DNA from: an uncultured Gammaproteobacteria bacterium
Lineage (GTDB): Bacteria; Patescibacteriota; Patescibacteriia; UBA1558; UBA10009
NCBI GenBank assembly: GCA_964588165.1
Contig: CAZPMS010000002.1
Span: 15,951 to 79,950 of the forward strand
Length of the DNA: 64,000 nucleotides
Reading direction: 5' to 3'
In this document: piece by piece, positions 5,221 through 43,490 of the stretch
How positions within the stretch are numbered: the stretch's first letter is position 1
Layout of the letters: every line of letters begins with the position of its first letter
The notes under the pieces: generated by a model
Databases searched by the model: none
The model's input: the letters and a program-made list of their open reading frames with translations, nothing else
Told to the model about the DNA's origin: nothing
Position numbers and translations under genes: made by a program

Positions 5221-5739
5221 CTAATTGTTTTTTTCTTTTACTTTGATTGAAATAGAACGGGTTTTTCTAGCCTTGGGCAATTTAACGGTTAAGACGCCAT
5301 TTTTTAAAGAAGCATCAACTTTTTCGGGTGTGATTTCGGTTGGTAAAATAATTGAGCGGGAAAAACCTCCCCAATAGCATTCTTGATAAAAATAATCATC
5401 CTCTTTAATAGTTGTTTCAATTTCCCGTTTGCCCCTTATAGTTACCATATCATTATTAATGGAGATATCAATATCTTCTGGTTTAACGCCGGCAATGGTT
5501 GATTTAATAACAATGGCGTCTTTGGTTTGGAAAACATCAACCGAAAGCTGGCCTTCTTCGTAATCTTCATCCAGCCATTTTTCGTTTTCTTGAACTTCTT
5601 CCTGAGTAGCCACTCCTTGCTCTGCAGGCGATTCGTTATTCAAAAAAAAGTCATCATCATCTGCTTCCACTGTTTTTTTCTTAGACTTGGCTTTATTGCC
5701 AGGACTTTTTTTGATTAAATCTTTTTTAAATAGTTTCAT
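5221..5739 (-). CDS. Hsp20 / alpha-crystallin family small heat-shock protein.
   Basis: Alpha-crystallin domain: SVDVFQTKDAIVIKSTIAGVKPEDIDISINNDMVTIRGKRE...FSRSIILPTEITPEKVDASLKNGVLTVKLPK. Confidence 0.85.
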   Translation of the reverse strand: MKLFKKDLIKKSPGNKAKSKKKTVEADDDDFFLNNESPAEQGVATQEEVQENEKWLDEDYEEGQLSVDVFQTKDAIVIKSTIAGVKPEDIDISINNDMVTIRGKREIETTIKEDDYFYQECYWGGFSRSIILPTEITPEKVDASLKNGVLTVKLPKARKTRSISIKVKEKNN

Positions 5740-5919
5740 AAGTTTTACTTTAAAAAGTGTTTATATTATACAACTTTTTTATTCACAGGGCAAATTTTAA
5801 GTGGTGGGTAGGTGGCAGAGAGTAGTTTTTAAGTTGAATATTGACAATTAGAATATTAAATGATAGAGTGTAATATTAATTCTTTTAAAATCCAACAGTT
5901 AAACAGTGAAGGAGGCACC

Positions 5920-6427: not shown

Positions 6428-7435
6428 ATGGAAGTAATTGCTACATTATGGAAAGTGCCTTATCATCACGATCGCAATCGGCGAATGATTGAAGCTGGCG
6501 TAGATTGTTTTAGGATTAAGTGTTCTCATTGGGAAGTTAAAGGCATTTCTGGTGCACTGCAGGCTGCACGAAAGCAAATTGATGAATCAGGCAAACCAAT
6601 AAAACTGATAGCTGATCTGCCTGAAGCAAAATTACGGTTAGGTTTTTTCCCACAAGAACGTCTTATTTTGCCAAAGGGCAAGGGGTATTTATTTAAATTT
6701 GCCGAATCTTCTGATAATCCAGAAAGTTTTATTCCGGTAAAATTTAAAGGTATAACTAAACATCTTAAAGTAGGTGACGAATTTTATATAGGTGATGGCT
6801 GGCTGGCCTTTACTGTAACTGAAATTATTAATGAAGATAGCTTTAAAGCCATAACCAGTAACACCGGCCAATTAGTTTTTAGAACATCTTTAACCATTCC
6901 AAAATTAATGGATGAGTTAAATCATATTACTCCGGTTATAGACGAACTAATTGTTGAATTGCCAAAGTGTCGGCCGGAAATTGTGGCTTTTTCTTTTGTA
7001 AATTCAAAAGCGATGTTGCAGGAATTAAAGAATAAGCTTTTAAAAGTTGCAACTAAAAGCTGGCAGCCAAAAGTTATAGCAAAAATTGAGTCCAAGGAAG
7101 GCGTAAAAAATATTGATGAAATTCTTGAACTGGCTGACGGTATCATGGTAGCCAGGGGTGATTTAGCTTTAAATATACCTTACGCTGAGCTGGGCTTAAT
7201 TCAAAAAAAATTAGTTAAAAAGGCTAAAGAAAAAGATAAATATGTTATTGTGGCAACTCAAATTCTTCAATCACTTTTGGATAATTATTTACCAATGAGA
7301 TCAGATATTCTTGACCTAACTAATATCTGTCTTGATGGGGCATCAGCTATTATGCTATGTACAGAAACTGCCCATAGTGAAAATCCTGAGCGAGCGGTAA
7401 GAGTGGCCAAAGAAATTATTAAAGCTGTTAACTAG
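6428..7435 (+). CDS. pyk: Pyruvate kinase-like protein (barrel/catalytic domain only, 335 aa).
   Basis: IAKIESKEGVKNIDEILELADGIMVARGDLALNIPYAELGLIQKK...VIVATQILQSLL...DILDLTNICLDGASAIMLCTETA matches the PK active-site region. No C-terminal allosteric domain is present. Confidence 0.65.
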   Translation: MEVIATLWKVPYHHDRNRRMIEAGVDCFRIKCSHWEVKGISGALQAARKQIDESGKPIKLIADLPEAKLRLGFFPQERLILPKGKGYLFKFAESSDNPESFIPVKFKGITKHLKVGDEFYIGDGWLAFTVTEIINEDSFKAITSNTGQLVFRTSLTIPKLMDELNHITPVIDELIVELPKCRPEIVAFSFVNSKAMLQELKNKLLKVATKSWQPKVIAKIESKEGVKNIDEILELADGIMVARGDLALNIPYAELGLIQKKLVKKAKEKDKYVIVATQILQSLLDNYLPMRSDILDLTNICLDGASAIMLCTETAHSENPERAVRVAKEIIKAVN

Positions 7436-7486
7436 AGATAATAATAAATATTAAAAAAACGCCCATAAGCTTGATGAGTGTTTTTT

Positions 7487-7561
7487 TGGTGACCCCACGG
7501 GGAATCGAACCCCGGTTGCCAGGATGAAAACCTGGTGTCCTAACCACTAGACGATAGGGCC
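7487..7561 (-). tRNA. tRNA-Glu (anticodon UUC)
   Basis: Reverse complement: GGCCCTATCGTCTAGTGGTTAGGACACCAGGTTTTCATCCTGGCAACCGGGGTTCGATTCCCCGTGGGGTCACCA. It folds as a cloverleaf with TTC at anticodon positions 34-36 and an encoded CCA. A TTGACA-17-TATCAT promoter lies upstream at about 7585-7615. Confidence 0.85.
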
Positions 7562-7649
7562 ATTAAAACTAAGGCAAATGATAGCGAAAATTTAATTGAA
7601 TGTCAAGATGTAGGCTATAAAAAGGTTAAAATATATTATAATCTTATAT

Positions 7650-7715
7650 AAATTCAGGATGGCATCTATTTTAAAAATCCGCTTTTAATGCGGCTTTTTT
7701 GTTTTTTAAAATATT
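7650..7715 (-). terminator. Intrinsic terminator closing the surface-protein operon.
   Basis: The reverse complement reads aaaagccgcattaaaagcggatttttaaaa, a hairpin plus U-run. Confidence 0.45.
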
Positions 7716-7731
7716 TTAAACGTTAAAACTG

Positions 7732-8664
7732 TCATTTTTGGGGAAATTTTTGTTTTGGTTGGCGTTTATTTAATACAGCCAAAAATATCAGAACCACTAT
7801 GGCTATTGCAAATAACCAGAAGTTTTTATACCAAGCCTTAGGGTAAGTTGCCGGCAAAGTAATTAGTTTTTGGTTTCCGGCTTTATCCACGGCTTTTATT
7901 CTGATTGTCTTATCCAGACTTTGATACTTTAGCAGGTAGGGGCTAACAGCTCTAGTGTATGGCCTTAAGCCTTCACTGATTTCGTAATAATCAATACCGG
8001 AGTTTTTATCATGAGCCATAAAAACCAGAAAATATTTTCCATCAAAAATAGAATCATCTTTAGAGATATATGGATCAAATGATTCAGGGGGGTAGTCGTC
8101 TTCAACTGGGGTGTAAGATGGTAGCGTAGCTATATCTAAAATTTCAAAATCAAATGGGCTAAGGGCTAGCTGGGCTGGCGTACCAAGGCCATCATTAAGT
8201 AAAACTCTAGCTTGGTTAAGGCTAAGATTGGCTAAGCCTAAATTTTTTGCCTTAAAAATAATATCAAATACTTTACCAGGCCTATAACCTTGGTAGTAGG
8301 GGCTTAAAATTCCTTTAGAGCCACCAGGTGTAATGCCACTAAAATTTATTTGGCATATATCTTGGCATTGGTAAATAGGCTTTTGGATCCATAAAGCAAT
8401 AATAGAGCCTCCTTCATTTATTTCTATTAACTCCAATAAATTATTATCAAAAATAATTTTTCCTTCAACAGCATTAATTAATTCATTTTGAGTATCTAAC
8501 ATTAGACTAACTTTAAATAGCTGCTTTTTGGCTGGTTTACTATTTTCAGCCTCAAAAAACATAGTGGCCGCCAGTAATTTATTAGAAACAAAAAACAAGC
8601 CTGCTATTAAAATGACCAATAAAAGATATTTATTTATTTTAAATTGTGGTTTATTATTTTTCAT
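7732..8664 (-). CDS. Hypothetical surface protein with an N-terminal signal/anchor and a C-terminal TM anchor.
   Basis: N-terminus KYLLLVILIAGLFFVS. C-terminus WLFAIAIVVLIFLAVLNKRQPK. Last gene of the co-directional cluster. Confidence 0.45.
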   Translation of the reverse strand: MKNNKPQFKINKYLLLVILIAGLFFVSNKLLAATMFFEAENSKPAKKQLFKVSLMLDTQNELINAVEGKIIFDNNLLELIEINEGGSIIALWIQKPIYQCQDICQINFSGITPGGSKGILSPYYQGYRPGKVFDIIFKAKNLGLANLSLNQARVLLNDGLGTPAQLALSPFDFEILDIATLPSYTPVEDDYPPESFDPYISKDDSIFDGKYFLVFMAHDKNSGIDYYEISEGLRPYTRAVSPYLLKYQSLDKTIRIKAVDKAGNQKLITLPATYPKAWYKNFWLFAIAIVVLIFLAVLNKRQPKQKFPQK

Positions 8665-8676
8665 TTTTAAAATAAA

Positions 8677-9621
8677 TTAACTTGTCCAGTAATATGCCAT
8701 TATACTAAAATCCACCAGATCAATTTTACCGTCATTATTTAAGTACTCTGCTTCAATTTGGGCAAACTCTTCATTTAAAGGTTTATTGTACCAATAAGCC
8801 ACTATAGAAAAGTCAACTAAGTTAACTTGGCCGTCGTTATTAACATTGCCTCTTATAAACACATTCTCTTCCATTAAAATATTTTCGGTACCCACCTCAA
8901 AACCGATATTATAACTGTAACCGCTGACCATTTGGTTATTTATGGAAGCTCGGGATTTAGTGTTATGGTGCCCATAGTCTAAGATTGATGTATCAAAATT
9001 ACTTAAATAGATGCCATTGGTATCAGAACTGGTGTAGGCAAATTGTTCAATATCTGAATTAACAGCGATAGTAATATCAGCCAAGGGAGTAGTTTGGCCA
9101 AAGATAGCCAGATTATCACCTCTTTTTACTTGGCTTTTATCTATTGTAATGGTAGGAGAAATAAATACTCCGCTAACTGTAGTAATAATGCCTTGGGATA
9201 CAGTTATAGGGTAGGTTAAAATATTAGATCGCCGTTCTTCTTCATCATGGCTATAAAGAGAAAAGATATAGTTGCCAGAAGACAAGCCAGTTACATTTAT
9301 GGAAAAATTGGCGTCTGCTCCGGAAATGGTAGTGGCTATTACTTGGGTATCTTTTAATAGAGTTACTATGCTTTGAGGATAAGCTTTGCCAGTAAATATT
9401 ACACTGGTAGCCGGGGTGTTATAGCCTCCGCCACCGCCTCCTCCGCCACCGCCTCCTCCGCCACCGTTTTCTTCTTCCTCTTCTTCAGGCTCGGCTACTG
9501 TGGCGGAAACATTAACTGTTCCTTGTTCAGCTAAAACATAGTTTTGGGTAAAACCGAAAATAGTTAAAGAGATTACTAATAAAAAAATAGCAATTAATTT
9601 ATTTTTTTTGCTATTCTTCAT
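8677..9621 (-). CDS. Secreted protein with a Glu/Gly-rich linker and two C-terminal dockerin-type repeats.
   Basis: Signal peptide present. EPEEEEEENGGGGGGGGGGGGGG linker. C-terminus NVNNDGQVNLVDFSIVAYWYN...LNNDGKIDLVDFSIMAYYW, which fits the dockerin DxNxDGxIxxxD pattern. Confidence 0.6.
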   Translation of the reverse strand: MKNSKKNKLIAIFLLVISLTIFGFTQNYVLAEQGTVNVSATVAEPEEEEEENGGGGGGGGGGGGGGYNTPATSVIFTGKAYPQSIVTLLKDTQVIATTISGADANFSINVTGLSSGNYIFSLYSHDEEERRSNILTYPITVSQGIITTVSGVFISPTITIDKSQVKRGDNLAIFGQTTPLADITIAVNSDIEQFAYTSSDTNGIYLSNFDTSILDYGHHNTKSRASINNQMVSGYSYNIGFEVGTENILMEENVFIRGNVNNDGQVNLVDFSIVAYWYNKPLNEEFAQIEAEYLNNDGKIDLVDFSIMAYYWTS

Positions 9622-9633
9622 AAAATTAATTTA

Positions 9634-10647
9634 TTACTTTAAACCTCGGACTTTATTAATAATCCATTGATTATATTTTTTAAGCCCTTTTCTTAAAATA
9701 TAACCCGCTACCACTATTACTATAACCAATAAGCTTAAAAGTTGCCAAGGAAATACAAAGAAGTAATAACTATCTTGAGCCGTTTCTTTAACTTTTCTGC
9801 CATATTCCAAACTTAACTTAGCTTTGTAGATGCCAAAAGTAAAATCTTGCCATTGTTTTTTGGCAATTTGGAAAAAACCCTCAGCATTTTCTTTAAGTTC
9901 TTGATCTTCTATTTTAGGTTCCCAATCAACAGTGAACTTTCTTATGCTGCCGGGTAAAATATTGCCTTCAGAAGGATTGGCCAATAGTTCGGCAGCTGTT
10001 AAACCAATGGAGTTTTTTATTTTTAATTCACCGATCGGTTTTAACCTATCTCCGCCTTGGTTTTTAAAGCGGTAAATAAAAGAAATTGGCAGGCTAGTAA
10101 AAAATCTTTTATTATCTTTAGTACTAAATTCTAATAAGCCGCCGCCTTCGGAAATATTCTCGCCTACCCTTAGAAGGATTAAAATACCCACTTTGGCACC
10201 AACAGAAACTTGGGTTCCCCCTTGTTGTTGTGGCGGGGAAGTTCCCCAAAAAATGGCAGCAAAATAGCCGCCGTTTTCAGTATTATTTGGAACTCTAATT
10301 TTATATTTAATTTCTTTTTGTTCGCCGCCTTTTAAAGTAATTTGGCTGGGAGCCTCTATCCATGTAGCTAAACCTTCTGTAGCTATAGTAAAACTGGGTG
10401 TGCCTTCTTCGCCTTTAGATTCAAAATTTTCAAAAGTAGAATAGAAAGTTTTTTCTTCCAACTGTTCGTTTAGCAATAAGAATTTGCCTTCATATATTTT
10501 TCCGGCATCTGTAAACACTTCAATTCTAGGAGGAGAAACGGTTAATGCCTGAACAGGTCCTGCTAATAAAGATAACCCTAAAAATAGAATTAAAGTGAAG
10601 AGAAAATATTTCATTATGGTAATAAAAATATATTTATGTAATACCAA
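9634..10647 (-). CDS. Cell-surface protein with a signal peptide and C-terminal TM anchor (DUF916/DUF3324-like architecture).
   Basis: Signal peptide, roughly 300-aa beta-rich ectodomain, C-terminal TM LLSLLVIVIVVAGYIL followed by a basic tail. Confidence 0.45.
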   Translation of the reverse strand: MVLHKYIFITIMKYFLFTLILFLGLSLLAGPVQALTVSPPRIEVFTDAGKIYEGKFLLLNEQLEEKTFYSTFENFESKGEEGTPSFTIATEGLATWIEAPSQITLKGGEQKEIKYKIRVPNNTENGGYFAAIFWGTSPPQQQGGTQVSVGAKVGILILLRVGENISEGGGLLEFSTKDNKRFFTSLPISFIYRFKNQGGDRLKPIGELKIKNSIGLTAAELLANPSEGNILPGSIRKFTVDWEPKIEDQELKENAEGFFQIAKKQWQDFTFGIYKAKLSLEYGRKVKETAQDSYYFFVFPWQLLSLLVIVIVVAGYILRKGLKKYNQWIINKVRGLK

Positions 10648-10691
10648 GACTTACATTAATAAATTTTTGTTTTTTTAGCAAGTCTGTTGTT

Positions 10692-13223
10692 TTAGTAGTT
10701 GGCGGTGGCTACGAAAGTCAAGGCTGATGTATAAGTTCCGGAATCAGTATTGGAGGCAATATTGGCCAGGAAAAAGACATCATAATCTGTAGTAGCTGTA
10801 GCGCTGGAGGCTGAAGCAACTTGATCAGCAGCCGATTCTCCGTCGTAGGCATAATTGGCCGTATCATAAGGTGAAGAAGCTGTACCGCTACCGCCTGATG
10901 CAGATAATTTAATGCCAAACTGTTCAGAGCCAGCACTTGGAGCGGTTGCGCTTCCACCAATAGCCGTTATTGTATCACCATATGAATTTGTTAAAGTTGG
11001 CCCTTCTATAGTGATAGTATAACCATTGGTGGCGCTACTGGAAGCGGATAGAGTGTGAGCTACGGCCTCTGTGCCGCTGCCATCCAAGTCTCCTGTAGCA
11101 TATCTTGAATTACCGCTGTCTAAAGTTCCAAAACCAATAGTATTATCAGAAATGCTAAAAGTTAAAGTTTGAGGATTTTTTATGGTGGTAGTATTATTAA
11201 TGGCTACAGCAGTGCCAGGTGTTACAGAACCAGTAGCAGTAACTTCAGAAGAAGGGTCAGTTATTTCTATTAAGATAGTTTCATCAGCCGAAGCTCCAGA
11301 TTCAACATCCAAAACTATATAAGCACAAATTTGCGAGGTGCCAACGGTCATAGTGCCGGAAATGGTGGCGTCACTAGAGGAAAAAGAAGCAGCCGTGCCA
11401 AAAAGGCTTTCACCGCCATCGTAATTACACGATGCCGAAGTTTCATAATAAATGTCAACATTAGTTAAGTTTGAATCAGCATTAACCGTTCCGGTCTCAC
11501 TAATAATAATTTCTGTCACATCGGTACTGCCAGTATCTCTAATTAAGGTAAAAGCTCCTCCAATATATATATCTTCAGTAGGGTTTACGGCATAGCCGAT
11601 TTGGTTACCGGTAGTTCCGACAGTAATTTCTCCGCTAGCCTGTAGAGTGGTAGAACTGGGGATGGCTTCAGTTCCGGAATCGATGGTGCCAGTATTAACT
11701 GTTATTTCATTAGGCGGATCAGTAATTTCTATATCAATAACTTCACCAGCAGAAGCTCCGGCACCTACATCTAAAATAATATAAATACAATCTTGATTTG
11801 TGTCTACGTGTAGGTTGCCCGTTACCACAGCATCTTCTGAAGCATCAAAGGCGGCATCAGTGCCAAAAAGAGTTTCACCGCCACCGTAACTGCAAGAACC
11901 AGTTTGCTCATAACGAATATCCAAGTTAGCTAGATTATTTTGGGCGCTAACATCACCAGCTTCACTTACAGTAATTGATGTAATAGTTCCGCTACCGCCA
12001 TCAGCTACAATAGTAAACCAGCCGCCAATATAATTATCAGTAGAATCAACGTTAAGGTTAGCCACTTGATTATCAGCCGCTGTTAAAGTAAAAGAAGGCT
12101 CAGCTACAGTGGTTGAACCGGCAATAGCTACTGCTGTACCTGGAGTCACTGCATCAGTAGCTGTTACTTCTGAAGAAGGATCAGTAATTTCTAATTCAAT
12201 AGTTTGAGAGTCAGAAGCTCCAGGCCCTAAATTATATTCCACATAAGCACAAACTTGAGAAGTGCCTACGCTCATAGAACCGGTAACGGTGGCATTTTCT
12301 GAACCATCAAAAGCATTAGCTGTACCAAAAATCGTTTCATCTCCGTTATAAGTACAGGTAGCAGCCGTTTCATAACGAATTACAATGTCTTTTAAATTGG
12401 TTTGGGCGCTAAAAGTGCCATCAGTTTCGCTCAGAACTATTTGGGTTACAGTATCGCTGCCGGTATTTGTAACAAAAGTAAAAGCCCCGCCGGCGTTATT
12501 TACATTGGAACCGGTATAAACAGTGCCGGTTTGGGTGCCGGTGGTGCCAACAGTAATTTCGGGGCTTATAATATCTATTTGAGCACACCTGTTGGTTGAA
12601 TATTCGTGCACTCCGGTTAAGCTAATATAGTAAGTTGTGCCATATGCAGCATTGCTGGTAACTTGGAAACCCCATTCAAGTTCTGAAAATTCATAAGGGC
12701 TATTATCAATACTGATAGTTTGTGAATTGGCGCTGTTATCAATTTGTGAGCCAGCTACAAAAGAAGCAGTTGCCGGGTCGGTAATCCCGCCATCCAAGGA
12801 TACATTTGTGGTATCGCTGCCGCTGGCAAGTTGAGTATCGTACATACAAAAAGGATGGACACCGCAACTGCCACTAACTGGAATAGCCGTGAAGTCGGTG
12901 GTACAGTCTGAATTGGTGCCGTAAGTAACTCCAAAAGAAACACCATTGGCGTCTTTGGTGCCGGTATTGTGGACTAAATGCCTTACTCTAAGAACCTGCC
13001 CTCTATCTATACTGGTAGTAGCTGTATTTTCAGCAACGCCCCAACTGGCATTAACTTCATTTCCATCATCATTACGCCAACGATATGCTTCTAGATCTAA
13101 ATTTGCTACACCTGAGGCTAAAATAAATTCTAAATTTAAAATGGTAAAAAAACCAATAGCGATAACTATCACTAAAGTTGCTATAATAATTGTTTCTTTA
13201 TTTTTTTTATGATTTGTAAACAT
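10692..13223 (-). CDS. Large Thr/Gly/Ser-rich surface adhesin-like protein with an N-terminal TM anchor and three tandem domain repeats of about 140 aa.
   Basis: Repeats of the form ...DIRYE(T/Q)..(S/T)C.Y.GGE(T/S)(I/L)FGT..AF..SE....TG...V.T.Q.C.Y.....G.GAS......IEITDPSSEVTAT..VTPGTAVAI occur three times. A T8 tract lies at codons 5-8. Confidence 0.6.
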   Translation of the reverse strand: MFTNHKKNKETIIIATLVIVIAIGFFTILNLEFILASGVANLDLEAYRWRNDDGNEVNASWGVAENTATTSIDRGQVLRVRHLVHNTGTKDANGVSFGVTYGTNSDCTTDFTAIPVSGSCGVHPFCMYDTQLASGSDTTNVSLDGGITDPATASFVAGSQIDNSANSQTISIDNSPYEFSELEWGFQVTSNAAYGTTYYISLTGVHEYSTNRCAQIDIISPEITVGTTGTQTGTVYTGSNVNNAGGAFTFVTNTGSDTVTQIVLSETDGTFSAQTNLKDIVIRYETAATCTYNGDETIFGTANAFDGSENATVTGSMSVGTSQVCAYVEYNLGPGASDSQTIELEITDPSSEVTATDAVTPGTAVAIAGSTTVAEPSFTLTAADNQVANLNVDSTDNYIGGWFTIVADGGSGTITSITVSEAGDVSAQNNLANLDIRYEQTGSCSYGGGETLFGTDAAFDASEDAVVTGNLHVDTNQDCIYIILDVGAGASAGEVIDIEITDPPNEITVNTGTIDSGTEAIPSSTTLQASGEITVGTTGNQIGYAVNPTEDIYIGGAFTLIRDTGSTDVTEIIISETGTVNADSNLTNVDIYYETSASCNYDGGESLFGTAASFSSSDATISGTMTVGTSQICAYIVLDVESGASADETILIEITDPSSEVTATGSVTPGTAVAINNTTTIKNPQTLTFSISDNTIGFGTLDSGNSRYATGDLDGSGTEAVAHTLSASSSATNGYTITIEGPTLTNSYGDTITAIGGSATAPSAGSEQFGIKLSASGGSGTASSPYDTANYAYDGESAADQVASASSATATTDYDVFFLANIASNTDSGTYTSALTFVATANY

Positions 13224-13226
13224 AAA

Positions 13227-14750
13227 TTATGTCACAAATAAATAATATTCAAAATATTTATGGGCCCAATCTCTAAAAGCTTGGCCAGCTTGGATTTGCC
13301 AGAGCTGGGCTGGGTTATAATCATCGGTTAAAATTAAAGAAGTATTTGGGGGAGTAAGCTTAAATATGTCGGTTCTTAAAATTTCTTGGTATAGATTAAA
13401 ACATTCAGGAGTAGGGCAGTTATTTTCTATGGCTTCATCTAAATTATCCGGCAGATTAGAGCCGGCAAAGAAAATAATATTAGTCCAATTTTCCTGACTG
13501 TCTGCCATGGTGATTATTTTTGGAAAGGCTTGCTGTAAAGTTAAATAAAGTGATTGGCTAAATTGTGAATTTAAAAAACCAAGTGTATTAATGGCTAAAA
13601 TCCCTTGCGGCGTTAATTTATTTTTTATTTCTTTAAAGGCCTCCTGGCTTAATAGATGAATGGGAATTTGTTCACTGCCAAAGGCGTCAATTATAATTAA
13701 GTCATATTTTTTTTCTGTTTTATTTAAAAAATAACGGCCATCAGTAAAATATAGGTTAAATTCTTCTGAAGAAAAGCCAAAATAATCAGTGGCTACTTTT
13801 TCTACCTTAGGATCAATTTCTACAATATCACTAATAATTCCTTGCTTTTTAAGATCTCGGGGGATAATTCCAGCTGCTAACCCGATAACTAGGGCATTTT
13901 TGGGCTGTGGCATTAAATAAGCTGCCATCTGCATTTCATTAGTACAGGGTAAAGAACTTTGACCAGTGTTTTTAAAAATTCCGCTTTGATTAATACCATC
14001 AATTAAAAAATAACGTACCGGCCCTTTATCAACTACTTGGATTTCTCCGTAAAAACTGGGGGTTTTAAAAATTAATTTACTTTCTTGGGTGGCTGTTGAT
14101 TTATAGGTAGGTACCAGCATTAATATTGCCATTAAAATTAAACCGCCAGCCAGTTTTAGAAAACCTTTATTTATTAAGAGCCAAACAAAAGCGGTTATCA
14201 GCAAGACTAAAGCAGCAAGGCCGAATATTTTAGTTATGCCAAAATTGGGAATTAGTAAAAAACCGGTTACTATAGCTCCGGTAAGTGATCCTAAGGTAGA
14301 TATGGCATAAAGATTGCCAGCTGTTATGCCTAAGTAATCTAGGGCTTCGGTTTTTATTTTTACTGCCAAGGGGGTTACCATGGCCAGTAATAAAAGAGGC
14401 AAAGCAAATAAAATAAAGCTGGCAGCCAAAGGGCCTTGGATCATGCCAAAACGAGCCGACCAAAGTAAAATCCAGGCGTCTATTTTAGGGATTATTAAAA
14501 CAAATAAGCCGCTTAAGAAAATAATCAGGTAAAGATTTTTTAGATAAGGTTTTTTATCTGCAATGCGGCCACCCCAAAAATAACCTAAAGCCAAACAGGC
14601 CATGGTAATGGTTATTAAAGAACTCCAAACATAAATGGTAGTGCCGTAGAAAGGGGCTAAAATTCTGGTGCCGGCAATTTCTATTACCATGATTACGGCT
14701 CCGGTTATAAAGAGGGTAAGATATAAGAAATATTTATTAAATAGTTTCAT
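13227..14750 (-). CDS. Polyamine aminopropyltransferase (spermidine synthase)-like domain fused to an N-terminal multi-TM domain.
   Basis: Several N-terminal TM helices. C-terminus LVIGLAAGIIPRDLKKQGIISDIVEIDPKVEKVATDYFGF...KKYDLIIIDAF is a PABS/SpeE-like fold. Confidence 0.7.
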   Translation of the reverse strand: MKLFNKYFLYLTLFITGAVIMVIEIAGTRILAPFYGTTIYVWSSLITITMACLALGYFWGGRIADKKPYLKNLYLIIFLSGLFVLIIPKIDAWILLWSARFGMIQGPLAASFILFALPLLLLAMVTPLAVKIKTEALDYLGITAGNLYAISTLGSLTGAIVTGFLLIPNFGITKIFGLAALVLLITAFVWLLINKGFLKLAGGLILMAILMLVPTYKSTATQESKLIFKTPSFYGEIQVVDKGPVRYFLIDGINQSGIFKNTGQSSLPCTNEMQMAAYLMPQPKNALVIGLAAGIIPRDLKKQGIISDIVEIDPKVEKVATDYFGFSSEEFNLYFTDGRYFLNKTEKKYDLIIIDAFGSEQIPIHLLSQEAFKEIKNKLTPQGILAINTLGFLNSQFSQSLYLTLQQAFPKIITMADSQENWTNIIFFAGSNLPDNLDEAIENNCPTPECFNLYQEILRTDIFKLTPPNTSLILTDDYNPAQLWQIQAGQAFRDWAHKYFEYYLFVT

Positions 14751-14868
14751 AAAAAATAATTTGGCACTATAAAAACTGTGGAAAAATATTTTCGCTTATT
14801 TATAATAATATTTACTATATTATAACATAAAATTGACTTTTTTATTTTAGTTAAAATATGCTATTATT

Positions 14869-15975
14869 TTGAATATGAAAATATTAGGTATAGAAACATC
14901 ATGTGATGAAAGCGCAGCTGCGCTGCTTCACGTATCACATAACACATATCACTTATCCAGTAATATTGTTTTATCGCAGATAGATATTCATAAAAAATAT
15001 GGTGGCATTGTGCCAGAGGTGGCAGCACGGAAACATGTTGAGTCAATTATTCCTGTTATTGAAGAATCCATTGGTAAGCAAAAACCGGATTTAATTGCTG
15101 TAACCTATGGTCCTGGTTTAATTACTTCGTTACAGGTTGGTGTGCAAACAGCTAAGACCTTGGCTTACATTTGGCAGGTTCCTTTAGTTGGGGTAAATCA
15201 TTTGGAGGCTCATCTTTGGAGCTTTATTTTGAATGAAGAAAGACGAGTGAAGAATGACGTCACACGTCACACGTCACACGTCAAACAATTTCCGGCAGTT
15301 GGTCTAATCGTATCAGGCGGGCATACGGAAATGGTTTTAGTAAAGGGAATTGGCTCGCCTCGATTCCCGTCCCGACTCGGTCGATCCGAGGCAAACGACG
15401 AAGCGGGCAAGTATAAATTGATTGGCAGAACCAGAGACGATGCAGTAGGCGAAGCTTTTGATAAAGTGTCTAAGATGTTAGAAACTGGTTACCCGGGCGG
15501 ACCGATTATTAGCCACTTTGCCAAAAAAGGCGATCCAGCAAGTATAGATTTTCCTAGACCGATGATAGATAGTGACGATTTTGATTTTTCTTTTTCCGGT
15601 TTAAAAACAGCAGTTAAGTATCATCTTAAACAAATGCCTAAAACCGGCAATTTAAGCCAGGCTTTTATAAATAATGTTTGTGCCAGTTTCCAAAAAGCGG
15701 TAATTGATGTTTTAGTTAGTAAAACCATTAAAGCTACAGAAAAATATAAGGCCAAATCAATTATTTTGGGCGGGGGAGTTAGTGCCAATGAAAATTTAAT
15801 CCATAATCTATTATCCATAACCAAAAAAAGGGAGATAGACTTTTATTATCCAGAATTAAAATTTACCGGTGATAATGCGGCTATGGTGGCTTTGGTAGGC
15901 TTCTTAAATAAAAAATCTGCCAAGAAAAATAATTGGCAGAAGTTGGTGGCCGAAGCAAATCTTAAGTTGGTTTAG
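14869..15975 (+). CDS. tsaD: tRNA N6-adenosine threonylcarbamoyltransferase TsaD (Kae1/YgjD family) carrying two in-frame repeat-encoded insertions.
   Basis: MKILGIETSCDESAAAL...VNHLEAH...SGGHTEMV...DDAVGEAFDKV...GYPGGP. Extra segments ERRVKNDVTRHTSHVKQ and SPRFPSRLGRSEANDEAG are encoded by repeats at 15255-15285 and 15352-15412. Confidence 0.9.
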   Translation: MNMKILGIETSCDESAAALLHVSHNTYHLSSNIVLSQIDIHKKYGGIVPEVAARKHVESIIPVIEESIGKQKPDLIAVTYGPGLITSLQVGVQTAKTLAYIWQVPLVGVNHLEAHLWSFILNEERRVKNDVTRHTSHVKQFPAVGLIVSGGHTEMVLVKGIGSPRFPSRLGRSEANDEAGKYKLIGRTRDDAVGEAFDKVSKMLETGYPGGPIISHFAKKGDPASIDFPRPMIDSDDFDFSFSGLKTAVKYHLKQMPKTGNLSQAFINNVCASFQKAVIDVLVSKTIKATEKYKAKSIILGGGVSANENLIHNLLSITKKREIDFYYPELKFTGDNAAMVALVGFLNKKSAKKNNWQKLVAEANLKLV

Positions 15976-23199: not shown

Positions 23200-26100
23200 A
23201 TGAAAGAATTATCTAAATCATATCAGCCAGATAAACACGAAAGCTCAATTTACCAAAAATGGGAAGAGTCCGGGTTTTTTAATCCCGATAATTTGCCAGG
23301 CAAGCGCAAGAAAGTTTTTTCTGTTAGCCTGCCGCCGCCCAATGCTACCGGCATTTTGCATATTGGCCATGCTTCGATGCTGGCTTACCAAGATATTATG
23401 GTCCGGTACCATAGGCTAAAAGGTGATAAAACTTTGTGGTTGCCCGGAACAGACCACGCAGCCATTGCCACTCAAACGGTGGTAGAAAAAAAATTAATCA
23501 AGGAAGAAAAAAAGCGCAAAGAAGATATTGGCCGAGAAGAGTTCAGAAAAAGAATAGATAAATATGTAGAAGAATCCCGTGGCACCATCCGTAAACAGCT
23601 CCGGGCCATGGGCTCATCTTTAGATTGGTCTAGAGAAAGATTTACCTTAGATAAAGATTTATCATTAGCAGTTAGAACAGCTTTTGCGAAAATGTATAAT
23701 GATGGACTAATTTATAGAGGTTATCGGATTGTTAATTGGTGCCCGCACTGTAAATCCACTTTAGCTGATGACGAAGTTGAGTATAAGGAACAAAAGGCCC
23801 CGTTTTATTATTTTAAATACGGTCCGGTGGTTATTGGTACAGCCAGACCAGAAACTAAATTTTCTGATAAAGTAATTATTGTTCATCCTAAAGATAAGCG
23901 TTTTAAAGATATCGCAGGTAAGGAATTTGAAGTGGAATGGATTAACGGCAAGATTAAAGCAAAAGTTATTACCGATGAAGCAGCTGATATGGAAATGGGA
24001 ACCGGGGCCATGACCATTACTCCGGCCCATAGTTTTGTAGATTTTGATTTGGCTCAAAAATATAAATTAAAGGTAGAAGAAATAATTGATAAAGATGGAA
24101 ATTTAACAGAAGTTGCTGGTGAATTTGCTGGTCAACCAGCTGCTAAAGCCAGAGAGAAAATTGTTAATAAGCTGGCCAAGAAAGGCTTAGTTGATAAAAT
24201 TGATGAAGATTACGTCCATAATTTATCTCTTTGTTACCGGTGTAAAACGCCTATTGAACCGTTGCCTTCTAAGCAGTGGTTTGTTGATGTAAATAAAAAG
24301 ATTCCAAAAAAAGGCAAGTCATTAAAGCAACTGGCCTCCGATGTAGTCAAAAATGGTGATATAAAAATAATTCCTGATAAATTCAACAAAACTTATTTCC
24401 AGTGGATGGATAATTTAAGAGATTGGTGTATTAGCCGCCAAATTTGGTATGGACATCAAATTCCGGTTTGGTATAGGGACGCAAAAGCGCAAAAGCGCAA
24501 AAGCGCAAAAAAGGAGCAAGATATTATTGTACCTAAAGAAATAACTGAAATCAATCTAATGCGCCACGGTTTAACTGATTGGAACAAAGACCAAAAAATT
24601 CAGGGCAGAACTAACGTGCCTCTAGATGAATCCAGCGTAGATAAAATTAATAAAATAATGCCTCAGTTAAGGTCAGAAAATTTTGATATAATTATTAGCT
24701 CACCCTTAATGAGAGCCAAACAAACGGCTGAAATTGTAAATAAACAATTAAATCTGCCTTTAATAGAAGATGAATTATTGGTTGAAAGAAATTATGGTAA
24801 ATTTGAAGGGAAAAAAGTAAATGATATAAAAAATGACCATCCTGATTATGCCAAGGATAAAATTAATTATGATATCCCAGGAGATGATGAAGAAACCTAC
24901 CAGGAGATTGCTCAAAGGCTGAAGAAGTTCATTAAACAAGTAAGTAAAGAATATCCTAACAAGAAAATTTTAGTTATATGCCACAATGCAGTTATCAGGA
25001 CTTTCAAGATGATAATAAAGGATTCCTCACCTAAGGAACTTTCTGGCTATAAACCTAGTTTTGACAAGTTGGTTAAATATCAAATTTTAGATGGTAACTA
25101 TAACCTAAAAGGTGTTGAGCAAGATCCTGACACTTTAGATACCTGGTTTTCATCTTCACTTTGGACATTTAGTACTCTTGGCTGGCCAGATAAAACTGAC
25201 GATCTTAAGGCTTATCATCCAACCAGTGTTATGGAAACCGGTTATGACATTTTATTTTTTTGGGTGGCCAGAATGATACTTATGTCCGAATACCTTTTAG
25301 GCCAGAAACCTTTTGAAACAGTTTACCTCCACGGCTTGGTTAAAGATAAAGAAGGCAGGAAGATGTCAAAGTCGCTTGGCAATGGCATTGATCCAATAGC
25401 CATGATTGATAAGTTTGGCACTGATGCTTTGCGGTTGGCTATGATTGTAGGAGCCAGTGCCGGTAATGACATCAGGCTTTACGAAGAAAAGATAGCCGGC
25501 TATAGGAACTTTGTTAATAAACTTTGGAACATCAGCCGCTACATATTATCTACTGTTGGACAAGTTAAACCAATTGAAAAATTGCCAGAAGCAAAAACTT
25601 TAGCTGATAAATGGATTCTTTTAGAATTTAATCAAATCGTAGAATCAACCACTGGTAATATTGAACAGTTTAAGTTCTCTCAAGCCGGTGAAGAGCTTTA
25701 TGAATTTACTTGGTCTAAACTGGCCGATTGGTATTTGGAAATCGCCAAGGTTGAAGAGGGAAAAGATGAGATCCTTTTATACATTTTAGAAAAGCTACTT
25801 ATTTTATGGCATCCCTTTTGTCCGTTTATTACAGAAGTTATTTGGGAGATATTTAAGACAGATAAGCTATTGATGATTAAAGAATGGCCGGAAATAAAGA
25901 AACAAGATATAAAAAACAAGATACAAGATGAATTTGAAAAAGTTCAAGAGATTGTTTCAGCTATCAGGAACACCAGGGCAGAACATCTGGCTAATCCCAA
26001 AAAAGTTTATGGTTGTTCTATAAAAACTTCAAAGAAAAAAGTGATTGAAGAGAATAAAAATATAATTGAAGCTTTGGCCAAAATTAAAATTATTCCTAAG

Positions 26101-26334
26101 GCCACTGGCGTTGCTATTAATCTTGCTTGGGCTGACATGATTTTAGATATTAAGGAAAATAGGGAAGTGGCCAAAAATAAAGCTAAAGAAACTGTAAATT
26201 TAGAACGTTATATCCAAATCCAAGAAGCAAAATTAAGGAATAAAGATTTTACTAAAAAGGCTCCACCTAAAGTGGTGGAGGAAGAAAAGGAGAAATTATC
26301 GCAAGCAAAAGAAAAGTTAGCCAAATTAAAATAG
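23200..26334 (+). CDS. valS: Valyl-tRNA synthetase carrying an inserted histidine-phosphatase (PGAM-like) domain.
   Basis: HIGH motif (PPPNATGILHIGHA). WCISRQIWYGHQIPVWY. KMSKS. C-terminal coiled coil. About 213 extra aa lie between PVWY and DPDTLDTWFSS. They contain LMRHGLTDWN (RHG), GKFEG and ICHNAVIR, the catalytic motifs of the histidine phosphatase superfamily. Confidence 0.9.
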   Translation: MKELSKSYQPDKHESSIYQKWEESGFFNPDNLPGKRKKVFSVSLPPPNATGILHIGHASMLAYQDIMVRYHRLKGDKTLWLPGTDHAAIATQTVVEKKLIKEEKKRKEDIGREEFRKRIDKYVEESRGTIRKQLRAMGSSLDWSRERFTLDKDLSLAVRTAFAKMYNDGLIYRGYRIVNWCPHCKSTLADDEVEYKEQKAPFYYFKYGPVVIGTARPETKFSDKVIIVHPKDKRFKDIAGKEFEVEWINGKIKAKVITDEAADMEMGTGAMTITPAHSFVDFDLAQKYKLKVEEIIDKDGNLTEVAGEFAGQPAAKAREKIVNKLAKKGLVDKIDEDYVHNLSLCYRCKTPIEPLPSKQWFVDVNKKIPKKGKSLKQLASDVVKNGDIKIIPDKFNKTYFQWMDNLRDWCISRQIWYGHQIPVWYRDAKAQKRKSAKKEQDIIVPKEITEINLMRHGLTDWNKDQKIQGRTNVPLDESSVDKINKIMPQLRSENFDIIISSPLMRAKQTAEIVNKQLNLPLIEDELLVERNYGKFEGKKVNDIKNDHPDYAKDKINYDIPGDDEETYQEIAQRLKKFIKQVSKEYPNKKILVICHNAVIRTFKMIIKDSSPKELSGYKPSFDKLVKYQILDGNYNLKGVEQDPDTLDTWFSSSLWTFSTLGWPDKTDDLKAYHPTSVMETGYDILFFWVARMILMSEYLLGQKPFETVYLHGLVKDKEGRKMSKSLGNGIDPIAMIDKFGTDALRLAMIVGASAGNDIRLYEEKIAGYRNFVNKLWNISRYILSTVGQVKPIEKLPEAKTLADKWILLEFNQIVESTTGNIEQFKFSQAGEELYEFTWSKLADWYLEIAKVEEGKDEILLYILEKLLILWHPFCPFITEVIWEIFKTDKLLMIKEWPEIKKQDIKNKIQDEFEKVQEIVSAIRNTRAEHLANPKKVYGCSIKTSKKKVIEENKNIIEALAKIKIIPKATGVAINLAWADMILDIKENREVAKNKAKETVNLERYIQIQEAKLRNKDFTKKAPPKVVEEEKEKLSQAKEKLAKLK

Positions 26335-41513: not shown

Positions 41514-43490
41514 TTAATTACTAAACCTATTTAGAAATTCTAACATCATGCTACCAAGTGGTTGATAGAAAACATGTTCACCATCTTCCAATTTATAGAA
41601 TTCAGTGGGCACCAAACAACTTTGATGAACCCAATAATCAACACTGGTAACAGGAGAGCTATTAATAAGTGCCTGGACTGATGGAGTGCTAATATCAAGA
41701 TTTTTTTCTACGGACGTGCATTGATGGGCATCGGCGTAATAATTGGAAGCTACTTCTGCTGTAGGCATTTCACCAGGTGCTGGAGATTCTCCTTCGTAAA
41801 GATATATTGAAGTTTGGTCATTAGTGGAATGAAACCGGATAATTGGAATAGCATCTTTTTGGCCGGCAGCTATTGCCGTATCATAAGCCAAGAAATCGCT
41901 ACCTGGTCCGCCACAACCGCCAACGGCCATGGCTATAATATCATTTCTGGTTAAAGCCATATGTTGGGCTTGGGCACAGCCATAAGAAAAGCCGCCAGCA
42001 AAAATTTTATCAATATAAAAGCTGCTTTCTAAATTATTTACTATTATATCTATAAAACTGTCATCATCAGGCATTCTCATTTGGGCATAACAGCCCCTAT
42101 CATCAATCGGTTCTTGCCCTGGGCGGGTATTCCAACAGGTTAAGCCAATTTGAGCATCATTGGTAAAACGATTATCAACCAGTTGGTTATTAGACCGTCC
42201 CATGCCTTGAGGGTAAACAACTATAAAGTTACCTTGCTGGTCAGCAATTTCATCAAATTGATGGCTTAATTGTTGTTGGGCCGTGCCTCCCTTGCCATGA
42301 TACCAGAAAAGAACATCATAATGTAAATTAGGATTAAAGTTTGTTGGTAGGTGAATATAATAAGACCTTTCTACAGTAGTATTGCCTGTAAAATTAGTCA
42401 TTTGGTCGTCAAACTCTATGGTAATAAGGTGGGTACCGGCACTTAAAAGGTTACATTGTCCTTGGTTGCATTCAAAATGTTCTTGGCAGCTTTGAGTTTC
42501 GCCCCATTCCGTACAGCCATCGCCATTATAATCGCCACAGGCTTGATAACCTTCACCAGAGCATTGGGTTTCATTTATACTACATTCATCAAAACATTGT
42601 GGGGGGTCTAAAGTACAGTTGCCATCTTGGCAGCTATATAAACAATTAGATATCTCACCCCATTCCGTACATCCATTACCGTCATAATCGCCACAGGTTT
42701 GATAACCTTCGCCTGAACATTGAGTATCATACAAATTACATTCATTAGTGCAATCAAATCCACCATCTCCCATTGGGTAAGCGATTTCATTTTCTAAAAC
42801 AGTGATAGGCACACCATCAGTATAGATGGAAAGATCAGGAACAACTATAGTGCTACTGAAAAGTCTGTTGGCAATCATGCCAGCATTAGTAACAAGACGT
42901 TTTGTTGAACCTTCAATATAATAGATCTGTGGGCTATGATAACCTTCTTGAACCAGGGTGCCCGTTGGATAGGTAGAAGAACTGGTTAAAGGAGCGCTGG
43001 ATGAATAGTTGGCAGCTAAATAGTTTGGCAATGGAATAATCATGCTTTCCCAGTTGGCACCATATAATAATGCTGCAGTATCTGCTGAATCAATGGCATG
43101 GGTTGCGCCATTGGGGCCGACAGCATAAACTTCCGGAGTGTTAGAAACATTCCAGGTGCCATCGCCTAAAACTTCAACATATTGAATAAGTTTTGTACCT
43201 TGTCTTACAACCACGGTAGAACCCAGGGTATAGCTGACCATTTCATCGGTTGGGACAGTTTTTAAACTATTAAAGTCTGGATACCATGTAACATATTCTC
43301 TCTCATGGTGGAATGGATGTTTAACTAAATTTGAATCCAAATAATAAACTGCCGGAGAGGAATCGGATTTAATTAAATCACCGGCTGTGGCAACATTAGC
43401 TTTAGCTATATTAATGGCAACCATAGTGCCCCAAACAGCAGCAGATGCCACTATTGAGATTAAGAACGATTTTTTTATGAAGTTACTCAT
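41514..43490 (-). CDS. Secreted esterase of the PHB-depolymerase family (alpha/beta hydrolase) with duplicated Cys-rich modules.
   Basis: Signal/anchor present. Two copies of C..EC...(D/E)TQCSGEGYQ(T/A)CGDY(D/N)G(N/D)GCTEWGE. C-terminal FWYHGKGG...GFSYGC (GxSxG). Confidence 0.6.
   Translation of the reverse strand: MSNFIKKSFLISIVASAAVWGTMVAINIAKANVATAGDLIKSDSSPAVYYLDSNLVKHPFHHEREYVTWYPDFNSLKTVPTDEMVSYTLGSTVVVRQGTKLIQYVEVLGDGTWNVSNTPEVYAVGPNGATHAIDSADTAALLYGANWESMIIPLPNYLAANYSSSAPLTSSSTYPTGTLVQEGYHSPQIYYIEGSTKRLVTNAGMIANRLFSSTIVVPDLSIYTDGVPITVLENEIAYPMGDGGFDCTNECNLYDTQCSGEGYQTCGDYDGNGCTEWGEISNCLYSCQDGNCTLDPPQCFDECSINETQCSGEGYQACGDYNGDGCTEWGETQSCQEHFECNQGQCNLLSAGTHLITIEFDDQMTNFTGNTTVERSYYIHLPTNFNPNLHYDVLFWYHGKGGTAQQQLSHQFDEIADQQGNFIVVYPQGMGRSNNQLVDNRFTNDAQIGLTCWNTRPGQEPIDDRGCYAQMRMPDDDSFIDIIVNNLESSFYIDKIFAGGFSYGCAQAQHMALTRNDIIAMAVGGCGGPGSDFLAYDTAIAAGQKDAIPIIRFHSTNDQTSIYLYEGESPAPGEMPTAEVASNYYADAHQCTSVEKNLDISTPSVQALINSSPVTSVDYWVHQSCLVPTEFYKLEDGEHVFYQPLGSMMLEFLNRFSN

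Follow-up and report, generated by a model that had tools for sequence, protein, structure and literature searches.

A putative reduced Pam-class adhesin cluster with a predicted cohesin-dockerin anchor in a CPR-type genome

Candidate phyla radiation (CPR) bacteria are thought to live in attachment to host cells. A 64,000-nucleotide stretch of contig CAZPMS010000002.1 (positions 15,951 to 79,950, forward strand; referred to here as the window) contains five closely packed, co-directional minus-strand open reading frames (ORFs) at 7732-14750, which a preliminary description made from the sequence alone had presented as an operon of cell-surface proteins and a possible attachment apparatus. The question raised by this locus is what kind of apparatus such genes might build and how it might be held at the cell. 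Our analysis points, with moderate confidence, to a reduced cluster of the Pam class in genes 2-5 of the block (7732-13223), comprising a chaperone, a tip adhesin, a dockerin-bearing cap and a membrane cohesin. The Pam class itself has already been described, and the part that appears to be new is the predicted split cohesin-dockerin anchor.

Pam pili, described by Troman et al. (bioRxiv 10.64898/2026.03.03.709456), are CPR-specific filaments of Ca. Mycosynbacter amalyticus for which structures were determined by cryo-electron microscopy (cryo-EM); they form by donor-strand exchange in bacteria that lack an outer membrane. According to that preprint, the Pam pilin consists of an N-terminal nine-strand sandwich, a linker strand donated to the following subunit and, at the C-terminus, a truncated immunoglobulin (Ig)-like acceptor domain. 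PamC and PamD are PapD/FimC-like chaperones anchored in the membrane by a C-terminal transmembrane helix, the tip pilin PamT has no linker, and PamR, which possesses an N-terminal strand, spacer domains, and a C-terminal transmembrane helix, is proposed to be the fibre terminator and anchor. The features of the present locus that bear on a comparison with this system are as follows, in window coordinates.

10692-13223, minus strand: 843-aa predicted Pam-type tip adhesin/pilin (NCBIfam NF058581; profile of the ~357-aa operon pilins)
11163-12566, minus strand: three tandem repeats of ~153 aa, each an all-beta sandwich of ~9-10 strands (R1 12099-12566, R2 11631-12098, R3 11163-11630)
10695-11108, minus strand: Pam pilin C-terminal domain, presumed to be a strand-accepting truncated Ig-like domain; the extreme C-terminus reads ...LTFVATANY
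9634-10647, minus strand: two-domain membrane-anchored chaperone-like protein with a WxLIP/PapD-like fold, a putative PamC/D analogue (AlphaFold2 model, Foldseek)
8677-9621, minus strand: 314-aa predicted secreted adaptor without a membrane anchor (Dockerin_1; weak Big_6 match)
9490-9522, minus strand: candidate donor strand GTVNVSATVAE, aa 34-44 of the adaptor, right after the predicted signal peptide (position-specific scoring matrix (PSSM) of pilin linkers)
9424-9486, minus strand: Glu6-Asn-Gly14 flexible linker of the adaptor, its Gly run arising from an exact 15-bp x 2.8 repeat
8695-8844, minus strand: dockerin module of the adaptor with two calcium-loop/helix repeats (aa 260-309; Pfam Dockerin_1)
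7732-8664, minus strand: 310-aa membrane-anchored cohesin-like protein (family-level Pfam Cohesin and profile matches)

Domain composition of the module proteins

The 843-aa protein provides the connection to Pam pili. Its last 138 residues (aa 706-843) match the NCBIfam model NF058581 (CPR_Pam_pilin_C) with 67.3 bits against a cut-off of 55, and a profile of the ~357-aa pilins found in related operons aligns to aa 572-843 with an E-value of 1e-58. Judged by these profile matches, the protein belongs to the Pam system by virtue of its pilin domain. It gives only 34.2 bits with the PamT equivalog model NF058579, far below the cut-off of 240, and no Pfam domain was found in it. The protein begins with a Lys-rich signal peptide or signal-anchor; an N-terminal domain (aa ~37-219) and the three beta-sandwich repeats come next, and the Pam pilin domain forms its C-terminus. 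Thr accounts for 15% of its residues, Ser for 11%, and Ala and Gly for 10% each. Another JGI sample contains a variant of the adhesin that is 99% identical, the sole differences being C107S, D110Y and F111I; these are clustered in the N-terminal domain and could represent micro-diversity in a binding surface or the loss of a disulfide cysteine.

The three tandem repeats reported in the preliminary description of this Thr/Gly-rich protein are present at aa 220-375, 376-531 and 532-687 and share 45-55% identity, although their unit measures ~153 aa rather than the claimed 140 or so. An AlphaFold2 model shows repeat 3 as an all-beta sandwich with a predicted local distance difference test (pLDDT) score above 90, and the C-terminal domain reaches a pLDDT of only 50-80. 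In fold searches the repeat matched jelly rolls of the cohesin or carbohydrate-binding module type. The C-terminal domain shows a weak likeness to Csu donor-strand pilins. The repeat module is mostly single-copy in its homologues, occurring once in many CPR proteins of 490-600 aa that end in a related C-terminal domain. A homologue of the module comes from Ca. Microsyncoccus archaeolyticus. Its triplicated form may serve as a stalk in this locus, which has no shaft pilin.

The gene that follows the adhesin encodes a protein of 337 aa from a TTG start, or of 326 aa from the ATG at 10614 that is called in other assemblies. Its AlphaFold2 model (pLDDT 92, pTM 0.78) contains two beta-sandwich domains and a C-terminal helix (aa 301-336), with the transmembrane helix at aa ~303-318 (nt 9694-9741). 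The top Foldseek matches of the model are CfaA, CsuC, Caf1M, FimC and the WxLIP of Enterococcus faecium, with E-values between 1e-10 and 4e-7; the WxLIP structure 9i1y_A matches at 1.2e-10 (TMq 0.41, TMt 0.50), and 9i25_C, bound to a long WxL protein, was also matched. Its predicted structure marks this protein as a membrane-anchored chaperone with a PapD/WxLIP-like fold and an architecture of the PamC/D type. It had previously been described as a DUF916/DUF3324-like anchored surface protein, with which the WxLIP-like fold and the transmembrane anchor agree, but the sequence match to DUF916 (WxLIP_PGBD) stays below threshold at 16 bits against a cut-off of 27.3. The family comprises 557 homologue clusters of uniform length, and its profile found no match among PDB sequences; single-sequence PDB searches with the adhesin, chaperone and cohesin proteins likewise returned nothing meaningful.

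A low-confidence loop of the chaperone (aa 136-152, pLDDT ~63), located before a long hydrophobic strand, contains the sequence QVSVGAK (aa 146-152), which resembles a pilin donor strand and is placed like the F1-G1 hairpin of chaperone-usher chaperones. We dropped this loop as a donor-like strand, as it scores -0.5 on the PSSM and the median chaperone score of -8.1, compared to -10.0 for other ORFs, is not above background. Among the genes of unknown function that are most strongly expressed in Paceibacteria parasitising archaea are three whose products resemble one another in structure and have a domain labelled "PGBD" by InterPro (PMC10936435); these may be homologues of the chaperone (WxLIP_PGBD).

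The 314-aa protein consists of a signal peptide, an N-terminal beta-strand, the Glu6-Asn-Gly14 linker, two Ig-like domains and a C-terminal dockerin. Pfam Dockerin_1 matches it with 23.1 bits against a cut-off of 22.9, a homologue reaches 30.4 bits, and both calcium loops of the DxNxDGxxxxxD type are visible in the sequence (NVNNDGQVNLVDFS and LNNDGKIDLVDFS), in agreement with the twin dockerin repeats noted earlier. This dockerin-adaptor family is represented by 1793 clusters at E<=1e-3. An exact look-up of the 314-aa sequence returned no match despite identical DNA in five assemblies, which we take to be a database quirk.

A dockerin implies a cohesin partner, as had been pointed out, and at the family level this partner is found in the next gene, previously listed as another anchored surface protein. 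In the 310-aa product the signal peptide is followed by a cohesin-like domain (aa ~35-175, nt 8140-8562) and then by a small OmpL47-type beta domain (aa ~215-265), and a transmembrane helix lies at the C-terminus (aa 282-298, nt 7771-7821). Its family numbers 701 clusters, and 11 of 114 members examined match Pfam Cohesin (PF00963), the best with an E-value of 1e-7; two members have been named "cohesin domain-containing protein" by NCBI. The family profile matches the Ruminococcus flavefaciens cohesins 5aoz, 5m2s and 5m2o (E 0.005-0.03), and over its positions 8-147 it aligns (E 1e-26) with the part of a paralogue that scores above the cut-off for Pfam Cohesin (31.7 versus 24.1 bits). By sequence relationship and the adjacency of the two genes, the last gene of the operon probably encodes the membrane-anchored cohesin partner of the dockerin.

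Gene order and strand motifs across CPR genomes

One genome per species was scanned with the chaperone profile, yielding 80 loci whose ORFs were then searched by profile. These loci are labelled Parcubacteria/Paceibacterota, Kaiser-, Taylor-, Nomura-, Staskawicz-, Magasanik-, Falkow- and Gracilibacteria; some titles given by binning pipelines, such as "Gammaproteobacteria", are evidently mislabels. They share a fixed order of Pam-domain protein(s), chaperone, dockerin protein and cohesin protein(s). A ~357-aa Pam pilin adjoins the chaperone in 73/80 loci, and 55 loci have a further Pam-domain pilin upstream of it that ranges in size from 191 to 2722 aa; both of these pilins pass NF058581 with 67-87 bits. 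The dockerin protein directly follows the chaperone in 70 loci, a ~300-aa cohesin protein with a transmembrane helix comes after it in 64, and a second cohesin paralogue of ~571 aa is next in 61. In an example of this paralogue (locus L028, 11094-12806) the Pfam Cohesin match of 31.7 bits is accompanied by Big_13 and OmpL47-type domains. Operons with two cohesins encode only one dockerin protein. Beyond these genes no further conserved flanking gene was found in the 80 loci, the most recurrent flanking family being present in 13. We conclude that the locus is a donor-strand pilus/adhesin module conserved across CPR, and that the window carries a reduced form of it, in which a single Pam-domain gene is present and both the ~357-aa pilin and the second cohesin are missing. 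Elsewhere in the 64-kb window we found no other gene for a Pam-domain protein, chaperone, cohesin or dockerin.

A shared strand motif divides the proteins of these loci into distinct types. In the consensus of the ~357-aa pilins, the linker DDQVAVTATVSQ stands directly before the C-terminal domain. The motif [VIL]x[VIL][ST]Ax[VIL] occurs in 58 of 130 Pam-domain proteins and lies just upstream of the C-terminal domain in 56 of them; these 56 are apparently the ~350-aa pilins, and the 74 others include most of the variable-size upstream pilins. Among the operon dockerin proteins, 55 of 67 have this motif just past the signal peptide (median position 34), compared to a background of 4% in cohesins, 9% in chaperones and 5% in 686 other ORFs. 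On a PSSM built from the 56 shaft-pilin linker strands, the GTVNVSATVAE sequence of the 314-aa protein scores 21.9 bits, and scores above 15 bits are reached in 1% of unrelated ORFs. The motif was not found in the 843-aa protein, where the best PSSM score is -5.3; without a linker donor strand this protein therefore fits an acceptor-only, or tip, role. The distribution of the motif thus indicates that the cluster type includes acceptor-only proteins whose N-terminal domains vary, shaft proteins that are both donor and acceptor, and donor-only dockerin proteins, corresponding to the tip, shaft and terminator roles in donor-strand pili.

The N-terminal parts of the dockerin-adaptor family are swappable. 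A Cys-rich CGDG...EQCDG module is inserted between the strand and the poly-Gly run in 22/67 operon dockerin proteins, and many representatives of the family from outside such operons begin with a ~70-aa "SSNF...GGG...SSSF...GFLYFP" module or with long extra domains.

Assembly model and alternative explanations

In the model that we favour, all four module proteins would be exported by Sec. The membrane-anchored chaperone would hold the 843-aa protein by its incomplete C-terminal Ig-like domain, paralleling PapD and FimC with pilins, WxLIP with WxL proteins, and the proposed role of PamC and PamD. The 843-aa protein, possessing a Pam C-terminal groove domain and no linker donor strand, would act as an acceptor-only tip subunit in which the three tandem beta-sandwich modules form a built-in stalk beneath the N-terminal binding domain. 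The mature N-terminus of the 314-aa protein (GTVNVSATVAE) would then supply the missing strand and cap the 843-aa subunit, with the Glu/Gly linker and the two Ig-like domains following the capping strand. The C-terminal dockerin of this adaptor would bind the cohesin of the 310-aa protein, which would be held in the membrane by its C-terminal helix, and two polypeptides would in this way do the job proposed for the single-chain PamR. The analysis establishes the domain identities, the fold of the chaperone, the synteny and the strand motif common to pilins and dockerin proteins; strand insertion, cohesin-dockerin binding, the order of assembly and the stoichiometry are what we infer in this scheme. 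More tentatively, and as a generalization that we rate somewhat below even chances, Pam-type fibres across much of CPR (lineages of the Paceibacteria type, Gracilibacteria, Magasanikbacteria and others) may end in a secreted adaptor whose strand caps the last pilin and whose dockerin plugs into membrane cohesins, the present locus being a version reduced to a single-subunit stalked adhesin.

Several observations weigh against this model. The model of the C-terminal domain is of moderate confidence, and its fold matches are mostly to generic beta-sandwiches, with no Pam or WxL structure among them. No NCBIfam model matches the chaperone, dockerin or cohesin proteins, and their relation to PamC, PamD and PamR of M. 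amalyticus is putative. The 310-aa protein itself has no direct Pfam Cohesin match, and the dockerin of the 314-aa protein is only 0.2 bits over its cut-off. A test for covariation within genomes between the strands of pilins and those of dockerin proteins was null (p = 0.52), and the strict motif occurs near the N-terminus in only 26 of 150 representatives of the wider dockerin family. A shaft pilin could also be encoded outside the window.

The proteins might instead form a non-polymerising complex of the WxL kind, in which the 337-aa protein, as a WxLIP analogue, inserts its own beta-hairpin into the C-terminal domain of the 843-aa protein and so keeps it permanently at the membrane, and the dockerin and cohesin are a separate, co-regulated adhesive pair. 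This is an explanation we regard as unlikely, but it has points in common with the data: the chaperone model is as close to the E. faecium WxLIP (9i1y_A, 9i25_C) as to the pilus chaperones, weak WxLIP_PGBD matches occur in 21 of 102 chaperone homologues, WxL loci follow the same cluster logic (PMC10599100), and a single Pam-domain protein in the window does not need a polymer. However, the 843-aa protein does not end in a WxL domain: its C-terminal domain gives no Pfam match and contains no Trp (aa 688-843), and it passes the model for Pam pilins, which were shown to polymerise by cryo-EM. Such a complex would also leave unexplained both the shaft-pilin linker motif at the mature N-terminus of the dockerin proteins and the synteny of the chaperone with the dockerin and cohesin genes in 64-70 of the 80 loci. 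The dockerin and cohesin could alternatively be taken for a cellulosome-like scaffold displaying enzymes or nutrient-binding proteins, in keeping with the presence of both modules and with relatives that possess two cohesin proteins per operon. We consider this highly improbable: no catalytic domain is found in any module protein, the dockerin protein carries only Ig-like spacers, and dockerins are limited to a single ORF in the window and, across the 80 loci, to the dockerin protein of the operon itself. The earlier idea of a surface scaffold therefore finds no support where an enzyme-bearing scaffold is meant, as no other dockerin is available in the window or the related loci. What is borne out is a surface apparatus of secreted and anchored proteins in a CPR-type genome.

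A further alternative, proposed in the preliminary description, concerns the first gene of the block and the repeat tracts within it, for which two more features are relevant.

13227-14750, minus strand: 507-aa protein with an MFS-like membrane domain fused to a spermidine-synthase-like (PABS/methyltransferase fold) domain (NCBIfam NF037959; Pfam Spermine_synth)
13201-13208, minus strand: A8 run on the coding strand (T8 on the plus strand), codons 6-8 (Lys-Lys-Asn) of the adhesin gene

The proposal was that a SpeE-like enzyme heads a five-gene attachment operon, in which slippage at the A8 and poly-Gly tracts switches expression or changes linker length; we consider this very unlikely. All five packed ORFs are where they had been placed, with gaps of 3, 44, 12 and 12 nt (the second being 77 nt if measured from the ATG at 10614), and the tightness of these gaps, with 3 nt between the SpeE-like and adhesin genes, speaks for a common operon. 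The nature of the first gene was also recognized correctly, as its product (487 aa in some gene calls) matches NF037959, "fused MFS/spermidine synthase", with 208.5 bits against a cut-off of 40 (aa 18-481) and Spermine_synth with 41.5 bits (aa 275-410), and by these matches is an N-terminal multi-pass transmembrane domain fused to a PABS/SpeE-like domain. The gene is probably co-transcribed with the module here, but it is not a conserved operon head: there is one weak match to it among the 80 related loci and none in the other 79. The conserved module lacks the SpeE-like gene, whose membership in this case is a matter of adjacency to the adhesin gene. As for the tracts, both are present, the T8 homopolymer being refined to codons 6-8 and the exact 15-bp repeat to 9425-9466, where Tandem Repeats Finder reports 2.8 copies with a 100% match, encoding 14 Gly after six Glu. 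The Gly run varies from 5 to 18 between species, indicating that the tract changes over evolutionary time, and several short-read contigs end 40-150 nt beyond it. Against slippage, the AT-rich window contains 24 A/T runs of 8 nt or more, or one per 2.7 kb, a frequency at chance level; others are found at the 5' end of the dockerin gene (9602-9609) and inside the SpeE-like gene, and that of the adhesin stems from AAA Lys codons in the N-region of its signal peptide. Gly runs of 5-18 are present in 59/67 operon dockerin proteins, and runs of at least 4 in 118/150 family representatives, always between the N-terminal strand (or the inserted Cys-rich module) and the conserved domains, a placement that argues for a flexible tether. 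A length change in a tract of 3n nucleotides would moreover leave expression unswitched. The 7.3-kb operon is 100% identical across independent JGI, ENA and Logan assemblies, and in this comparison of assembly consensus sequences the Gly tract is 14 codons in all five assemblies containing it and the A8 run is unchanged in all three containing it. Taken together, the chance frequency of the A8 run, the family-wide occurrence of the poly-Gly linker and the identity of the tracts between assemblies leave phase or length variation unsupported.

The dockerin gene contains the starts or ends of six short-read contigs assembled from different samples; these ends lie 40-430 nt downstream of the Gly repeat (operon coordinates ~5500-5900), show no difference in sequence, and may reflect assembly-graph trouble or low coverage. 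Two scans of a metagenome contig collection for the flanks of the Gly tract gave no match; the organism is absent from that collection, which thus holds no population information.

The surroundings of the operon are those of a small genome, with a G+C content of 33-43% and housekeeping genes for TsaD, pyruvate kinase, HSP20, FtsH, GyrA, UvrD and a PilB-like ATPase in the window, and all homologues of the operon proteins with a plausible taxon label are from CPR/Patescibacteria. A scan for promoters and terminators across 7300-15000 performed no better than chance. A tRNA-Glu(UUC) gene, the sole tRNA gene in the window, is located at 7487-7561 on the minus strand, 170 nt downstream of the last operon gene and in the same orientation. 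At 23200-26334 on the plus strand is a 1044-aa class-I tRNA synthetase of the Val type (tRNA-synt_1 at 440 bits, Anticodon_1, Val_tRNA-synt_C) that is interrupted mid-protein by a histidine-phosphatase domain (PF00300 His_Phos_1, 139.8 bits, aa 452-616), an unusual insertion or fusion. Two large minus-strand ORFs, of 658 aa (41514-43490) and 457 aa (61968-63341), have no Pfam match at E<1e-4.

Relation to known systems

A comparison of the module with Pam pili shows extensive agreement in general design and some disparities in composition. Both are CPR-specific, and the module combines a pilin C-terminal domain above the Pam model cut-off with beta-sandwich N-terminal modules and a PapD/FimC-like chaperone with a C-terminal transmembrane helix; the likeness of the latter to PamC and PamD is architectural. 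Neither system has an usher or trans-envelope machine, and a terminator or anchor that starts with an N-terminal beta-strand is proposed in both. In contrast to the PamT, PamB, PamA and PamE proteins, a single Pam-domain protein is encoded here, of 843 aa with a triplicated module and no donor-strand motif, and there is one chaperone rather than two. The predicted anchor is split between a dockerin protein with strand and spacers and a cohesin protein with a transmembrane helix, unlike the single RbmA-like PamR, and the two parts would be joined only through binding of the dockerin to the cohesin; the pattern of tip, shaft and terminator thus mirrors that of PamT, PamA-B-E and PamR, but the dockerin-bearing terminator is not itself membrane-anchored. 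Pam pilins were reported mainly in Saccharimonadia and Microgenomatia (10.64898/2026.03.03.709456), whereas the present operon type is found in genomes labelled Parcubacteria/Paceibacterota, Kaiser-, Taylor-, Nomura-, Magasanik-, Falkow- and Gracilibacteria. The preprint makes no mention of dockerin, cohesin, WxL or DUF916, and our literature search found no paper tying cohesin-dockerin pairs to CPR pili.

WxL loci encode a large and a small protein that have their C-terminal domain in common, the N-terminal domains of the large one being variable, together with a transmembrane-anchored protein carrying two Ig domains (PMC10599100). The WxL/WxLIP clusters of Enterococcus and Lactobacillus (PMC10599100, PDB 9i1y, 9i25) resemble the present locus in gene logic, chaperone fold and a monoderm envelope, and differ in that the C-terminal domain here lacks the WxL motif and any Pfam WxL match at E<=1, with DUF916 below cut-off; a dockerin/cohesin pair is absent from them, nor are they known to polymerise. 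Chaperone-usher pili of the archaic (Csu) and alternate (CFA/I) types share the chaperone fold, a donor-strand logic with alternating hydrophobic strands and a conserved C-terminal pilin residue, and there is a weak structural likeness to CsuE and CsuA/B. Unlike in those systems, there is no outer membrane here, the chaperone is tethered to the membrane, and the donor strand of the related shaft pilins is an internal linker rather than an N-terminal extension. No usher-like ORF is present in the operon, nor is any extra gene conserved in the 80 related loci, and because it has no usher this is not a classical chaperone-usher system. As in the anchoring of cellulosomes in Clostridia and Ruminococcus, where scaffoldins with a dockerin bind to anchoring cohesin proteins of the cell surface, the locus encodes a C-terminal, duplicated calcium-loop dockerin beside a cell-anchored cohesin protein, and a non-covalent plug and socket would fix an extracellular assembly to the cell. 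The cargo here would be a pilus or adhesin instead of enzymes, however, and what is predicted to hold the cohesin is a transmembrane helix, not SLH domains or sortase; the Pfam sequence matches are also weak.

The Pam pilus has so far appeared only in a 2026 preprint, from one species of Saccharimonadia. The locus analysed here links very abundant and unannotated CPR families, amounting to 557 chaperone, 701 cohesin and 1793 dockerin-adaptor clusters, to the Pam system, and shaft pilins can be separated from tip adhesins in metagenomes by the simple rule of whether or not they have the V-x-V-[ST]-A-x-V linker. If the proposed model is true, this would be the first cohesin-dockerin socket that anchors a pilus, and it would extend cohesin-dockerin biology beyond cellulosomes. 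It would also mean that a fibre can be fixed to a cell lacking an outer membrane, usher or sortase through the combination of a donor-strand cap and a cohesin-dockerin pair.

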